A stretch of DNA of 64,000 bases from contig OZ231126.1 of assembly GCA_965153355.1 (NCBI GenBank), positions 7,936,001 through 8,000,000 on the forward strand. The letters are read 5' to 3'. Positions 22,604 through 31,672 of this stretch are shown here, in pieces; the stretch's first letter is position 1; each line of letters begins with the position of its first letter. The translations under genes were made by a program, and so were the position numbers. This DNA comes from Flaccisagitta enflata (Eukaryota). Below the pieces are notes generated by a model. That model had not been told where the DNA came from, ran no database searches, and saw nothing but the letters and a program-made list of their open reading frames with translations.

Positions 22604-25600
22604 CTAATCATTCTCTTCTTCCGAGTCAGACTCTTCTTCAGAGTTTGAAGAGGTCAAGGTTGTGTCTTTGCGATTGTTTCTTTCGTCATCGGTTGACAAG
22701 GGGGAAGTCTGCGTGTTCCTCTCTTGTTGCTCGTCCTCGGATTCATCGTTATCATCAGGCGTCATCTCAACCAAAGTTTCGGTCTCGAAACGTAGCTCTT
22801 GAACGACTTTTGATTTTCGGCCTTTGTCTTTGTCTTTGTCTTTTCCGCCTTTGTCTTTGCATTTTCTTCCTTTGTCTTTTGATTTTCTGCCTTTGTCTTT
22901 GTCCGTGGTGGGTCCGCCTATTCCGCGATATCTCACCGTCGAGATCTCGATGTTTGGATCCTAATGGGTGCAAGATGCAGTAATTTAGAGTATTTACTTT
23001 TGCAAATTTTCACATAAACTGCGATAATTGTTTAAACAAAACATGTTAAGATTGACCAAGCAACCAATTCATCAACGTTGATCTATTTCTTGCTTTGTCA
23101 ATCTGGAACCCCCTTTGTTTTTAAGAAAAAATTATTGCAATTAACTTGAAAATTTGCCCAAGTAAATACTCTAATGCTCCGACAGATACAACCGTACAGG
23201 TCACCAACAACAAGACCAATGTCCAAAAAAAAAAAATGTGAGCCATGTGCCCTACCTCTTTGTGACGCAAAGAGGGAAACTTCGACTCCTTCTGGCAACG
23301 TTCATCCAGGTCCAACTGCATTTGCCGCATATTCACCAACCGAATTGGTTGGTTTCCTGTTGCTGTCACTCGAAGGCATGGTTGGCGGAGTACGATTCTG
23401 CATTGAAAGAGGTGGTGATGGAAAACCATTAAATAACAAGGCCAAGTAGGCCAATAAGGTGCGACGTGTAGATCGTCGAACGAATGCGTTACAGACCAAC
23501 AGACGGACAGAGCCAGTTATAGAGGTGCTTTGTCGCACCAAAAAATGTAATGTATATTTGCCATTCCTCTATCCATCCATTGACCCATCCATCCATGCAT
23601 CCATCTATCCATTCATCCATACATCAAATGACCTATACACCCATCCAATGACTATGCAGTCATACATCCATTTACTCATCCTCTCCCCCCCCTTCACTGT
23701 GTACCTTCCCATCCCTTTTTAAAATCCTATGTCCATAAATACATCCCTCCAACTAAGTATTCATAATTAAAAATCACATTGTTCCAACACATCACTCTTC
23801 AATCCATTCATCCTAAAGAAAACCAAAAAAAACCCACCTATGTATCCATCCATGCAATCATCCATTCCTGTACTATAAATATATCATGCTTTGAAATTCT
23901 CTTCATGAGTATTCATGAGTATTCATGAGTATTCATGAGATTTCATGAGTACGCTCACCTGCCAAGGAAAGTGTACTGCGCCATGAAGTTGCGGCATAAA
24001 GCACCCATCACGTTTGTGTTGGGTTTTTTGGTCCTTGAACGTTGGTAATGGGCCTCCTTCTGCTTTGCTTCATCTTGCTTTTGCGCTCCTGGCCCTTTAG
24101 TCCTCGTTATCTTGGCCAGAAGGTTTTCTCACTTCATGAGTGGCCAGACGTACCATTTGATGAGGAGATCTGTCACAGCGTGTGGTATTTCCGTTCCATC
24201 AGGGTTGAATAACGGAACCTCCTCCACGACACAGTGCTCAGACAGTAGGGCCCCTTTGGCTTTCCCACGGTCAAACCCCCGTCCATCAAGGGGGAAATCT
24301 TTTTGGGTTTTGGGAAATTGGGGCAGGGTAAAGGTGGATGGGGTAATAGGGTAATGAAAGTGAATAATTAGTATTGTAAATCATCAATGTTGTATTTGTT
24401 AGCTACTCTAATTAACAAAAAAACTAATCTAAGACATAAGTTTTTTCAGGAATACAAATAAAGGAAAATAGAGGAAAAGGAAACAGTTGATGTACATACA
24501 ATGGCGATGTAGTGTTGATGTACATACAAAGGCTAGTGTTGACCATACAGTCTGTATGTAAAATCTTGGATATTCATTTTTTTTCATATCTTAAACATTT
24601 CTACGTCTAATTACATGAATCAAGGGTAAGCTTTTACCCAGGCTTACCAAGATTGGGAAGCCGATTCTGTCAACCTGGTGCATGCTTTGTTCTTAGTTGC
24701 GTGCACGCGACTCTACAACCCGCTTTAGTGCTCTGCCGTGCAACGGTGGGTTGGTCTGTTCCTTGGTCCGTCACACTTTCCTTTTTTGTACTATAACTTT
24801 AACTGTTAGGTAATTTTAAGTCATTTTAAGTCATTTTCAGTTATTAAAAGTCATTTTTAGTCATTCTAAGTAATTTTTATTTTTTTTAAGTCATGATAAG
24901 TTATTCTAAGTTATTTTGGGTCATTTTTTTTAAAAAGTCCTTTTTGGGCCTTTTTAGGTCATTTTAAGTACTTGAAAGTCATTCTAAGTCATTCTTAGTC
25001 ATTGTAAGTCATTCTTAGTCTGCAAGTCTTGCAGGGGACTTTTAGGTGTTGGCCTTGTTTTCATTCCCCTTTCATATACAGCAACTGCAGGACCTGGTTG
25101 CTCTCATGTTGCTTAGCATTGCTACCATGTTACCCTGAATCGGCTTCCTGGGTTCAAGTAGGTAAAACATTGTGTCCCTGATCTGCTTCACCACTGTGTA
25201 TGCCAAAGAAAATATATTTCTTGGTTTTCATCATTCAAACATACACTCGCTCAAGAAGAAATTTATTTTCTTTTTTCTTGGTTTTAATCATGTGAGGTTT
25301 TTGAAGAATGTCCTCGCAATTGTATATGATCGTGTCCGTTGGTTGGTTGGTTGGTTGGTTGGTTGGTTGGTTGGTTGGTTGGTTGGTTTATTGATTGTTC
25401 ATTGTGTTGGTTGGTTGGTCACCCTAAAAGAAAAAAAAAAAACGCTGAATATGAGATAGTTTTACATTCCTCCCACATCTCATGATATACCTCATTATTT
25501 TTTATTCATCCAAATTTTTTTTTTCATTCATTCATTCATTCATTCATTCATTCATCTCTTCAATCATTCATTCATTCATTCATTCATTCATCCATTTCCA

Positions 25601-28600
25601 ATATCAATGCCTTTTTCAAGGAAACACCAACTTATTGGCCTGAACTTTTCACATTCTAGGAGATAAAAAATATCTAAGTCTAAAGAACAATAAAGGTTAA
25701 GAGATTGAAATCCTTTTGGACCTATAACGGCAAAACGTAGAACTCCCCCATATCCACGCAGCGAAAAATGGCTCAAGGGGCGATGAGTTTCGTTCAACTT
25801 TTTTTTTGTTAGTGGGTAGGATAATGTATTGTTGCAGTAGAAAAGAATTCATATAGGTGTCATGCATAAATATTAGGGTGAATAAAAGATACCTATATCT
25901 ACTTGGGCATGTTTCCAACTTTATTATCGATTGTGTTTGTTAAGCCATTACTAAATAGTGTGTACAAAGAAAAGGAAACTTTGTTTAATAGTGCTCTGAT
26001 GTAACTCACTTGAAGAAACAATCTTTGCCCCTCGTATGTTTTGCCATCGGATTTCATCGCTTCCTAAAAAAAAGGAAAAGGAGTTGGGGAATGATTAATC
26101 CTTTTTTTTATCTTAAAAGCAAAAGTATGACAGCGTTTGCACACTAAGTATGTACATATTTTTTTTCATGTTAATAAAAACCTAAAAAAAATTTGGTTCA
26201 TGTGAAGGATTTACATGTTTTTTTTGGATAATCAATTCATCAAATTGTCTTCATGTTCTCACCATGGACTGGTCGACAGCGTACTCGCACAACTTGGCAG
26301 TCTTGAAATTTGTTCCCAGCTCCAGAACATTGTGATGGACGAAGTCCCTTCCCTCCTTTCCATCGGTTTCGTCATATTGCTTTTTGGCATCTTTGATAAT
26401 GCGCGGCAAATAATAATCTGCAAACTGGCTCACCCGATGTCGCAATCCTTCAAAACCCATTGGCATAAAGCTGGTCATGTAATTGTTCACGACGTATTTG
26501 GTCATCTTGGTGTAATCCTAAAAAGTGAAATCCATGCAGGACATTAGCCCTATTGAGGAAAACCCTTTTAGGTGCATGTTCACGTGTAGTTTTGCGAATG
26601 GGGGGCACATGGAGACTACCTATTTATTAAACCTCTCTCACCTGCGCAACGGAAGGGAAGTGTGTCTTCATATTGTCAAAGTACTTTCCCACTCCCGCAC
26701 AATAATGTTTCAGTTCTGGCGTCACTGCGCAGGCCAGTACCAAAAGCTGAAAAAAATGAAAATGGAAATTTCCAAATGTTACTCTCCCACTAGTCTTCAA
26801 TTCCCTTTCTCCAATTCTCTTTTTCTCTGTGGTGATGGGGGGGGGAGTGTAAGAGAGAATAGGTGTCCATTTCTAACCAAATTAAAAGAAAAGCAGAGAA
26901 ATGTAAAACAGTTACTTTGAGTATGACGGGTTCATCCTAAATAACTTTACCATGAGCTTATCCTCCTCTTGATCGTAGCAGCCTGGGCTGTTCTCCATGT
27001 CCTTTATCATCCCAGCAAAGTCCTCGTCCGTACTGTCCAATACCCCAAAGTCAACACCGTTGTCCAACCTCAGTTGTTCGGAGGCTTCTTTGGGAATTAG
27101 GTTGTGTTTGGCATCGCGTTCGTTATACAGATCCCACTCCATTTTTGGTTGACGACCTAACAATAAAACGGAAAGATATCCTAATTAATGCATTTGTGTA
27201 CAATTTGGCAGAAGTGGTCATGTGAAAAACGGGGTGGTAATGGATGGAGGCATGGACTGATTTACTTCAAGCTGGCTAGTTGCTTTTCTTGGAATTAACA
27301 ACATGAGGTAAGACCTTTCACACTTAATATATCTCCCAAAAAAATATATACAGTTATTTCACTAATTTGTTGTGAACGTTACCAACCTGTTCCGGATGTT
27401 ATGTTGGATTTCCTCCTCACTTTGCTTTGCTTCGTTGTGTTTAACCCCTGCGCCAATATCCTACAAACTGAGTGTTGATCCTTCATCGAGACCCCAATAA
27501 AGAATCCCGGGTATCGCTTATCGAGCCAGTCAAAGAATGTCCTGACTCCGTCAACACCAGTGAACAGAATGCGAACTTTTCCGGGAATTTCGAATTGATT
27601 TTTGCCTTGGTTTTTCTTCATGATTTCAACGAGGGAATCCTAGAAAGGGGGTTTAGGTAAGATTTTACTGGTTTTGTAAATGTAAACGTGAAATAATAAT
27701 TGTTTTTCCTTTTTTAAAAGGAAAATAAATAATTTCTCATTTACATTTACAGAACCAGTTAAATTATATTACATTACATAGTGATTCCCTACTATCACTC
27801 ACATTAAGTCCCAAGGATCTTCCCATATTAATCCAGGCATCTTCACGTGTTGAATCTGGAGATTTCTCGTTGACGAACTTCAAGGCGTTTTCGAAAGTCA
27901 AGGGTTCTCCCTCTAGGTGTGAGATGATGTTTTGGATCCGGGGAAGTGCAACCTTTTCCCAAATCGAGTAAACCCACGCAAGGGGTTCTGTATAGGAAGA
28001 ATTTGGGTAATGTAAAATAATTCATGGCTGCCTAGTTTGTGTGTGTGATAAGGCTATGATAAAATGACAACCAGACTGAAAGGTACTTGATTACAGTGGG
28101 TTTTGGATGTGGAGTTGTGGTCCTATAAAGGAAGTCTGAGCAAGTAAGAGATAAATTAAAAGGGACAAGGTAAGGATGTAAATGGTACAAAATTTGGCTT
28201 CCCCTTGCAACCAACTTCTAAAGAAACCAAAGAAACTAAAGAAACCAAAGAAACCATAGAAACCAACCCGTGAAATCGTTCTTTGTCGGCATTTCGGGTT
28301 GATACACAAATATGTCCTCGCTCTTTCGTTGATTTAACTTTGCGTAAATATAGCCCTCTTGAAGTTTAACCAACATGGGCGTCTCCCCGCTTGGGAGGTC
28401 CATTCTGAGGAATTTCGCCCATTCGTAGATATCCCCTTTTAGCTTGTCACAAAGGAAGACATACAGGTTTTTATTCCCCATGTCTGTCTTCTGTTGGAGC
28501 CATTCGACGTGGACCTCGAATTTCTGGCCCAAATCAAAAGGTGGATATTTTTCGTCGACTTCTAGGTTTTGCTTATGAATGTATTGCAGGAAAGTCATGT

Positions 28601-31600: not shown

Positions 31601-31672
31601 TGGATCGCGTGAGGTCACCTCTCCATCCTGCGATTCTTGAGAATCCCCTCTTCCCCCCCTTTTTTCTGACAT
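22604..31672 (-). CDS. Large multi-exon (~17 exons) gene of unknown function inside the CACTA element; low-complexity N- and C-termini, globular core; probably partly decayed
   Basis: Phase-compatible GT-AG exons: 31672-30709, 30609-30457, 30342-30283, 29990-; then 28960-28772, 28600-28268, 27987-27803, 27639-27387, 27156-26951, 26746-26642, 26517-26263, 26063-26010; terminal exons ~24300-23960, ~23397-23255, ~22960-22604. Junctions at 29.0-29.9 kb and 24.3-25.8 kb unresolved; in-frame TGA near 24130. Confidence 0.75.

Follow-up and report, generated by a model that had tools for sequence, protein, structure and literature searches.

A predicted intron-rich orphan gene downstream of a broken, probably CMC/EnSpm-like transposase gene in Flaccisagitta enflata

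Background

The Spm element expresses tnpA and tnpD from a single transcription unit, and TNPA of maize En/Spm is a multi-exon product that lacks a transposase domain and whose coding sequence follows the transposase open reading frames (ORFs) downstream, on the same strand (PMC1636069). We describe here a gene in a similar position in Flaccisagitta enflata. In a stretch of 64,000 nt (assembly GCA_965153355.1, contig OZ231126.1, positions 7,936,001 to 8,000,000 of the forward strand), which we call the window, a multi-exon orphan gene on the reverse strand (31672-22604) directly follows, on the same strand, what is likely a CMC/EnSpm-like transposase gene (34558-40177). The window is repeat-rich eukaryotic DNA, and all positions are counted from its first letter.

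TNPA binds subterminal repeats of its own element. To our knowledge, second genes of CACTA elements are well known only in plants. An animal case is SmTRC1 of Schistosoma, whose 3' proteins are described as non-conserved and fast-evolving, with an unproven function; the corresponding ORFs, SmTRC-PrA and SmTRC-PrB, lack Transposase_21 and are said to resemble nothing else. The proteins are defined by transcripts cloned in spliced form, and CACTA ends are present on the element (PMC1636069). Fungal CMCT elements bear extra genes as well. In the CMCT/KDZ elements, which have terminal inverted repeats (TIRs) together with target site duplications (TSDs), genes for TET/JBP dioxygenases, a known enzyme fold, sit beside a CMC-type transposase and are proposed to aid escape from silencing (PMC12730594).

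In layout the orphan gene resembles the gene of TNPA: it is on the strand of the transposase ORFs and 3' of them, has multiple exons and lacks a transposase domain. A preliminary description, made from the sequence alone, had proposed a highly diverged TnpA/ORF2-type factor; as to position this is supported, the layout being like that of En/Spm and SmTRC1. No exon has a Pfam family, and none showed similarity to plant TnpA in Pfam at E values up to 10. A Pfam family for plant TnpA exists, and the orphan protein is much larger than TNPA. Whereas En/Spm is a single transcription unit with CACTA termini and subterminal binding, no transcript joins both genes of our locus in the runs examined, no CACTA termini were found, and an array of GTTAAAAACCTTTTTAAC repeats provides candidate sites at most. 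The likeness to SmTRC-PrA and SmTRC-PrB is one of description: an orphan protein with changes concentrated at particular sites. Unlike SmTRC1, the locus shows neither cloned spliced transcripts nor CACTA ends. With the fungal loci it has in common a second gene beside a CMC-type transposase, and it differs from them in having neither a known enzyme fold nor enclosing TIRs and TSDs. In composition only, and with no common domain, the protein is similar to Nopp140/nucleolin-type proteins, which are acidic/Ser-rich nucleolar and chromatin scaffold proteins: it too has Ser/acidic arms, basic clusters and a K/D/E-rich tail.

Results and discussion

Splice structure of the orphan gene

The core of the gene consists of eight exons on the reverse strand (28960-28772, 28600-28268, 27987-27803, 27639-27387, 27156-26951, 26746-26642, 26517-26263 and 26063-26010), which splice to 1,580 nt and translate into an uninterrupted 526 aa. 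Each of the seven junctions is in phase, is of the GT-AG type and has a pyrimidine tract. As a control, we used a script that searches for the longest in-phase exon chain at fixed splice-site thresholds. At the core locus the script returned 8 exons and 1,760 nt, a length reached by none of 200 dinucleotide-preserving shuffles (maximum 934); the strand opposite the core gave 1,249 nt, and the locus ranked second in chain length among 122 three-kb segments of both strands. Taken together, the shuffle, opposite-strand and segment controls show that the seven core junctions are real and well above chance.

Around the core, a complete ORF of 11 exons can be assembled, running for 3,396 nt from ATG to stop without an internal stop and encoding 1,131 aa. 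The first coding exon (31672-30709, reverse strand, with its ATG at 31672 in ORF 30692-31702) encodes a disordered Ser/acidic arm with an RRKKK cluster, and its donor (ATG/GTAATT at 30709) is in phase 1 and compatible with the acceptor at 29779. The second exon (29779-29285, reverse strand), Ser/Ala-rich and of low complexity, is required for a closed ORF; its phases suit both neighbours, the donor at 29285 being compatible with the acceptor at 28960. It is nevertheless the least certain of the 11, as its low complexity leaves other frames open too. The terminal exon (22960-22604, reverse strand) contributes a (KDK)n/acidic tail and the stop codon. Its acceptor (...cacccattag/GATCC at 22960) is in phase 0, the same as the donor at 26010, from which it is separated by an intron of 3,049 nt (26010-22960) containing high-copy repeats. 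Candidates for further exons between 26010 and 22960 were rejected, having weak splice sites and lying inside DNA with a high copy number in a DNA run. The predicted protein is composed of an N-terminal arm of 486 aa (19% Ser, with RRKKK), a core of 526 aa with ordinary composition and a D/E/K-rich tail of about 118-119 aa.

These results confirm the observations of the preliminary description, which had reported at least seven phase-matched canonical junctions between 28960 and 26010, a Ser/acidic arm, a (KDK)n/acidic tail and no recognisable domain: the three peptides that it quoted are all found in the spliced eight-exon translation, and the ends that it gave to the gene, 31672 and 22604, turn out to be the ATG and the stop of the complete ORF. 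Its estimate of about 17 exons was not reproduced; 11 are enough, and three candidate exons upstream would bring the number to 14. The gene is an annotation overlooked by automatic ORF tracks.

The three candidate 5' exons (34468-34061, 33918-33772 and 33487-33280, reverse strand) are acidic/Ser-rich and include a KRRRR cluster. They have strong sites (donors gtgagt, gtatgt and gtgaga; pyrimidine-cag acceptors) and would join in frame to a second acceptor, at 31590, which would turn the first exon into an internal one. The resulting 14-exon model is stop-free over 4,077 nt (1,358 aa), with an ATG 89 nt past the transposase stop codon. The local chain of these exons reaches 772 nt, compared with a shuffle maximum of 718 nt (0 of 300 shuffles as long). 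With the 11-exon model, the gap from the transposase stop (34558) to the ATG at 31672 measures 2.9 kb and is partly occupied by a unit resembling a miniature inverted-repeat transposable element (MITE) and by a high-copy repeat.

Contigs from a second organism, here called organism B (run X9), cover 27014-31553 only. They follow the window colinearly through exons and introns alike and show 7 differences from it in 1,866 nt. Past 31553, inside the first coding exon, the organism B contig departs into 124 nt of pyrimidine-rich sequence unlike the window, so the 5' end of the gene is structurally different between the two organisms. All four organism B runs contain the same 0.44 share of the window. 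It is conceivable that 31672 is not the true start, and the break at 31553 fits this. A 6-nt in-frame deletion at 30960, in the first exon, was seen in two other DNA runs.

Relatives and constraint

Scanning every exon of the orphan gene against Pfam returned no family at E values up to 10, bar two low-complexity noise matches; about 270 other ORFs of the window were scanned as well. For two exons compared with PDB sequence profiles, the best E value was 0.095, and a word search among longer proteins found no homologue of the gene. We then have one positive result from an exhaustive phmmer search of exon 28600-28268 against 1,835,955,588 representative proteins: a single cluster, P0001, an unnamed metagenome ORF of 105 aa with 63% identity to the exon (E 6.5e-33). 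Its cluster-mate P0002 starts with MTFLQY and ends with FTGWF, an intron read-through; since this start and end coincide with the exon limits, the relatives at 62-63% identity keep the borders of the exon. One in-frame codon indel distinguishes P0001 and P0002 from the exon, with the frame unbroken.

Closer relatives are more numerous. The word search with exon 26517-26263 found unnamed ORFs at 100, 93 and 84% identity. An exact look-up found 5 of 10 ORFs of the window in the public collection, among them those of exons 28600-28268, 27156-26951 and 26517-26263; the five absent ones include exon 27639-27387 and the first exon. The 90%-identity clusters of the three exons present have 27, 13 and 25 distinct members, respectively, each on up to 45 contigs; the members are without exception unnamed and derive from assemblies in ENA or Logan. 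All 69 proteins retrieved are likewise unnamed. The only relatives of the gene are exon ORFs without names, found in marine assemblies with identities of 62-100% and conserved exon borders. Homologues in annotated proteomes of other organisms were found neither by the word search nor by phmmer with exon 28600-28268, and a scan of JGI metagenome contigs with the same exon returned none, as did scans of GTDB genome contigs and IMG/VR. In the ESM Atlas, the best score for this exon was 0.89, to bacterial 'hypothetical' clusters and under the meaningful level, and the AlphaFold2 (AF2) model of the exon is poor (predicted local distance difference test score, pLDDT, 52.5).

The variants are informative about constraint. 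Among 16 variants of exon 28600-28268, changes are gathered in two short stretches (for example CDKLKGD to KDKKKPE, with YDKRDPDN in the 62% relative), and strand-like stretches are invariant even in the 62% relative. Exon 27156-26951 has 47 consecutive invariant positions across 13 variants. Exon 26517-26263 shows no indel among 20 aligned variants of 83-100% identity, and the intron read-through directly after it is frame-shifted in one variant. The clustered changes, the invariant stretches and the indel-free exon suggest that the pattern of variation is that of a folded, constrained protein that is fast-evolving at some sites. Judged from its sequence, the multi-exon orphan gene is genuine, intron-rich and confined to one marine lineage, and it appears to be under selection, at least until recently.

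The transposase gene upstream

The region 34558-40177 (reverse strand) contains four long ORFs (38336-40177, 35781-36323, 35297-35806 and 34558-35235, reverse strand) whose closest relative is P0003, an uninterrupted ORF of 456 aa from a marine assembly. tblastn aligned P0003 to three pieces, 38848-38504 in frame -1 (61% identity), 36254-35790 in frame -3 (63%) and 35806-35339 in frame -1 (42%). In the Atlas, P0003 neighbours clusters whose modules are Transposase_21, Plavaka or RAG1 RNase-H/Zn (feature score 0.89-0.93, TM 0.51-0.66), and in its AF2 model, a poor one, the first strands and helix come in beta-beta-beta-alpha-beta order. Both the window copy and P0003 have a CRQC motif, that is C(2)C, and a histidine pair HNFH, which is H(2)H and not H(3-4)H; C(2)C with H(3-4)H has been described for EnSpm, Mirage, Chapaev, Transib and Plavaka transposases. 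By its Atlas look-alikes, the upstream neighbour is likely a CMC/EnSpm-like transposase gene.

The copy at this locus is broken. An insertion of about 2.2 kb of satellite-rich DNA (36343-38503), made of 9-12-nt satellites with TTTGGTCAT and TTGGTCATTTTA arrays, interrupts the frame; about 58 bp of coding sequence are directly duplicated at its borders (38560-38503 and 36360-36300), and P0003 residues 116-133 are replaced by the insertion. On inspection of the sequence, we found no canonical donor/acceptor pair that restores the frame across the insertion. Further along, a 2-nt deletion causes a frameshift near 35805. The last exon (35227-34558, reverse strand) follows a canonical intron (35342-35228) and ends with the stop codon TGA at 34560-34558; AATAAA is found at 34493-34488, 20 nt ahead of the ATG of the 14-exon model.

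The C-terminal ORF of the transposase has 14 variants in public assemblies at 94-100% identity, and the view that near-identical transposase ORFs are absent from public assemblies is rejected in part. Exact look-up, which misses an ORF with one changed residue or a different start codon, did not retrieve the N-terminal and catalytic ORFs. JGI metagenome contigs gave one weak transposase-like match, L001, of 42 residues.

Boundaries, copy number and expression

Each of the two genes has one relative at about 62% identity and none elsewhere. Furthermore, variants P0029 (transposase C-terminus), P0060 (exon 27156-26951) and P0008 (exon 26517-26263), at 98, 96 and 93% identity to the window, each have a longest contig of 18,308 nt, and these equal lengths suggest one contig bearing both genes in a second haplotype.

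We looked for the boundaries of an element in four ways: seeded inverted repeats; CAC..GTG pairs over 16 nt; CA..TG pairs with a TSD, for the gene plus transposase and for the transposase only; and local alignment of two candidate end zones. The searches yielded only chance-level or low-complexity pairs. No TIR with a target duplication was found around both genes or around the transposase alone, and the locus shows no 5'-CA..TG-3' ends with a 2-5 bp target duplication such as those of CMC/EnSpm elements. A 13-nt inverted match (32079-32091 and 40362-40374) proved no better than those in shuffles and was discarded.

The MITE-like unit (31972-32757), between the transposase gene and exon 31672-30709, has 72-nt inverted ends that are 83% complementary. 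It starts with CAGAGGGG(G)CGAACG and contains about 10 copies of an 18-nt palindrome, GTTAAAAACCTTTTTAAC (array 32195-32560), together with a (TAAAAACTGT)n array. One extra copy of GTTAAAAACCTTTTTAAC is located at 40209-40232, just upstream of the transposase ORF. A solo match to the MITE-like end lies at 30564-30577 on the reverse strand.

In DNA run X5, the two genes have a depth of 945-6,967 outside repeat bins, compared with 219,012-811,472 in four repeat zones (23000-24000, 24470-25460, 28916-29409 and 32868-33361) that have a unit resembling a short interspersed element (SINE) in common; one of these zones occupies most of intron 29285-28960. Depth over both genes is 200-800x below that of the true repeats of the window, which serve as the yardstick in place of a single-copy gene, and points to a low copy number. 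No paralogue, second copy or fragment of the orphan gene was found within the 64-kb window.

Of 24 public runs listed, 20 contain part of the window; they come from 9 studies, mostly marine metagenomes. We compared the region 22000-36800 with four runs. A polyA RNA run, X24, sampled as raw reads at about 6 in 100 (12.2 million records), gave 23 reads, all of them partial repeat matches, with no true coverage and no spliced joint. Contigs of a metatranscriptome, X15, are colinear with the genome across predicted introns (26361-26661 and 27010-27256) at a depth of 3-8, and because of this colinearity across predicted exon-intron borders they look like DNA. The two datasets are uninformative on the splice model and support it neither way; they are a sign that expression of the orphan gene is at most very low in one polyA sample. 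Run X9 of organism B has a depth of about 20, with contigs totalling 65 million letters.

The coding sequence of the transposase, about 2.6 kb, has three lesions (the insertion, the 2-nt frameshift and the replaced stretch of 18 residues), and the 3.4 kb of the orphan gene have none. By simple arithmetic, about 4 lesions would be expected in the orphan gene at the transposase rate, and the probability of finding none is roughly 0.02. The intact ORF beside a broken transposase argues for selection separate from that on the transposase, and it also counts against the gene lying inside a transposon.

Origin of the orphan gene

One explanation for these results, which we favour tentatively and hold at rather less than an even chance, is that a selected gene, born as the second gene of a transposon in the tnpA position, has outlived its transposase and now occupies an immobile low-copy locus. 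We infer both this origin and the function proposed below. The orphan gene would have started as the second gene of a CMC/EnSpm-type element, at the place of tnpA in En/Spm; the transposase copy would have decayed and the element lost its recognisable ends, while the orphan gene would have stayed intact through selection of its own, as an immobilised or domesticated accessory gene. From composition alone we infer a nuclear protein, in which basic clusters (RRKKK, and KRRRR in the 14-exon model), phosphorylatable-looking Ser/acidic arms and a K/D/E tail would surround a folded core of about 526 aa. By analogy with TNPA at its subterminal repeats, such a protein could bind DNA or chromatin. A more specific proposal, in which the TnpA-position gene of an animal CMC/EnSpm-type transposon has been kept by the host and its core is a new fold that binds DNA or chromatin and acts on GTTAAAAACCTTTTTAAC-type repeats or on silencing, is doubtful. 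If true, it would be a rare documented domestication of a transposon accessory protein instead of a transposase, offering a testable accessory protein turned host gene and a new core fold to solve. If the gene is only a lineage-specific host gene near a relic, it is an ordinary orphan gene, of value mainly as annotation.

Several observations weigh against the favoured reading. The assignment of the transposase was made from Atlas look-alikes only (feature score 0.92-0.93, TM 0.61-0.66): Pfam found no Transposase_21 in the ORFs of the window and only noise for P0003 (E 0.04 or worse), and the AF2 model of P0003 has a pLDDT of 44.2. No pair of ends encloses the two genes, and the 18,308-nt records were taken as a single contig from their equal lengths. 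The two subterminal regions of the element could lie at the GTTAAAAACCTTTTTAAC array and at the extra copy at 40209-40232; if these repeats are subterminal, the element would end near 32 kb, leaving the 11-exon gene outside it. The low depth in X5 and the lack of a second copy in the window also speak against the gene lying inside a transposon. The third-codon-position GC content (GC3) of the core, 0.55, is nearer to that of host exons (0.52-0.65) than to that of the transposase pieces (0.39-0.50), a measure that we found not to discriminate between transposon and host. The excess of the candidate 5' exons over shuffles is marginal, the polyA run is silent and the X15 contigs run through predicted introns. 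Finally, among the 12 exonic differences from other runs that we classified (out of 40 listed of a total of 232), 9 replace a residue and 3 are silent, near the neutral expectation, and two variant types differ at 6-7 of 84 positions in exon 26517-26263 compared with 2 of 23 in the translated intron that follows.

An ordinary lineage-restricted and fast-evolving host gene, with a transposase relic that landed upstream of it or shares a repeat-rich intron or gap with it by chance, is nearly as likely as a transposon-born accessory gene. It would be consistent with the missing TIR/TSD, with the X5 depth, with an intact ORF next to a broken transposase and with a core GC3 like that of a nearby BTB exon (0.53) and of the ORF at 49015-50454 (0.52). 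An abundant marine organism, with diversity between populations or species, would fit the variants across dozens of assemblies, and organism B contigs have 27014-31553 and nothing of the compared transposase region. Such a gene would be expected less readily to have no homologue in annotated proteomes, with one cluster in 1,835,955,588 representatives and none among longer proteins, to lie directly downstream of the transposase on the same strand, to have a relative at the same 62% identity as its neighbour and to show no expression in the runs examined. If the 5' exons are real, the two coding regions are only 89 nt apart, a gap too small for a transposon end. The frames could also be those of a recently dead relic that are still open, the gene no longer working or never having worked. 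The absence of true RNA reads and of a spliced joint, the 9 replacement to 3 silent differences, the 4 bases inserted within exon 28600-28268 in one X5 contig and the similar divergence of exon 26517-26263 and its following intron are all in keeping with this, but 1,131 codons open through 10 in-phase junctions, a 62% relative that retains frame and exon borders, and variation in short clusters beside invariant core stretches make it unlikely.

That the orphan gene is the working TnpA-like factor of a still-mobile two-gene CMC/EnSpm-type transposon, of which the window holds a defective, complemented copy, we consider quite improbable. A copy in neutral decay would not be expected to retain 1,131 open codons next to a transposase that has three lesions, no termini were found, depth in X5 is the same as in the surrounding non-repeat DNA, and the 64 kb contain no second copy or fragment. 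A mobile element would nonetheless account for the architecture, which is like those of En/Spm and SmTRC1, for the many variants with their mosaic, recombinant-looking pattern, for the uninterrupted transposase ORF of P0003, for the same 44% of the window being shared by the four runs of organism B with an X9 depth of about 20, and for polyA RNA that is silent, as with a repressed element. Capture of a host gene or fragment by a transposon, as in Pack-type CACTA elements, could be hinted at by a lone C-terminal exon of HMG-CoA reductase (HMGCR) beside the 5' end of the transposase gene, an exon that a very long intron explains equally well. The orphan ORF is complete from ATG to stop and retains at least 10 introns, and no parent gene or paralogue was found among representative proteins, among longer proteins or in the window, which leaves capture highly improbable.

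The interpretation in the preliminary description is supported in part. It had placed the gene inside the transposon, which the results do not show: no TIR with a target duplication encloses it, its depth is 200-800x below that of repeats, its ORF is open beside a broken transposase, and no transcript links the two. Captured cargo, which it had offered as another option, found no parent gene among the 1.84 billion representative proteins. It had looked to spliced reads, to paralogous copies and to a match with an ordinary host gene as checks: the sampled polyA run yielded its 23 partial repeat matches and no spliced joint, the 64-kb window no paralogue, and the word search and phmmer no homologue in annotated proteomes.

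Genomic context

ORF 40385-41005 on the forward strand contains the HMGCR exon, which matches profile positions 229-368 (Pfam E 1.5e-46). Among ORFs of at least 30 aa passing an entropy filter, Pfam detected no further HMGCR exon in 1-40385, which places the orphan gene and the transposase gene antisense in a very long intron, or in the gap, upstream of this exon; the exon is either a lone fragment or the end of a very long intron. It contains a Gly/Ala-rich insertion of about 20 residues. A BTB/POZ exon (42261-42857, forward strand, Pfam E 3.7e-21) follows about 1.2 kb past the HMGCR stop, and an open frame of 480 aa without a Pfam family occupies 49015-50454 on the forward strand.

Two further features of the window stand apart from these genes. 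An inverted duplication of 638 nt (5197-5834 and 10940-11577) is 98% complementary, with its arms 5.1 kb apart and shorter inverted repeats between them. At 45900-48270, more than 2 kb of DNA is of very low complexity and strand-skewed (GC skew -0.78, AT skew -0.92), translating as (ERKK)n or (FLSF)n with long open frames on both strands.

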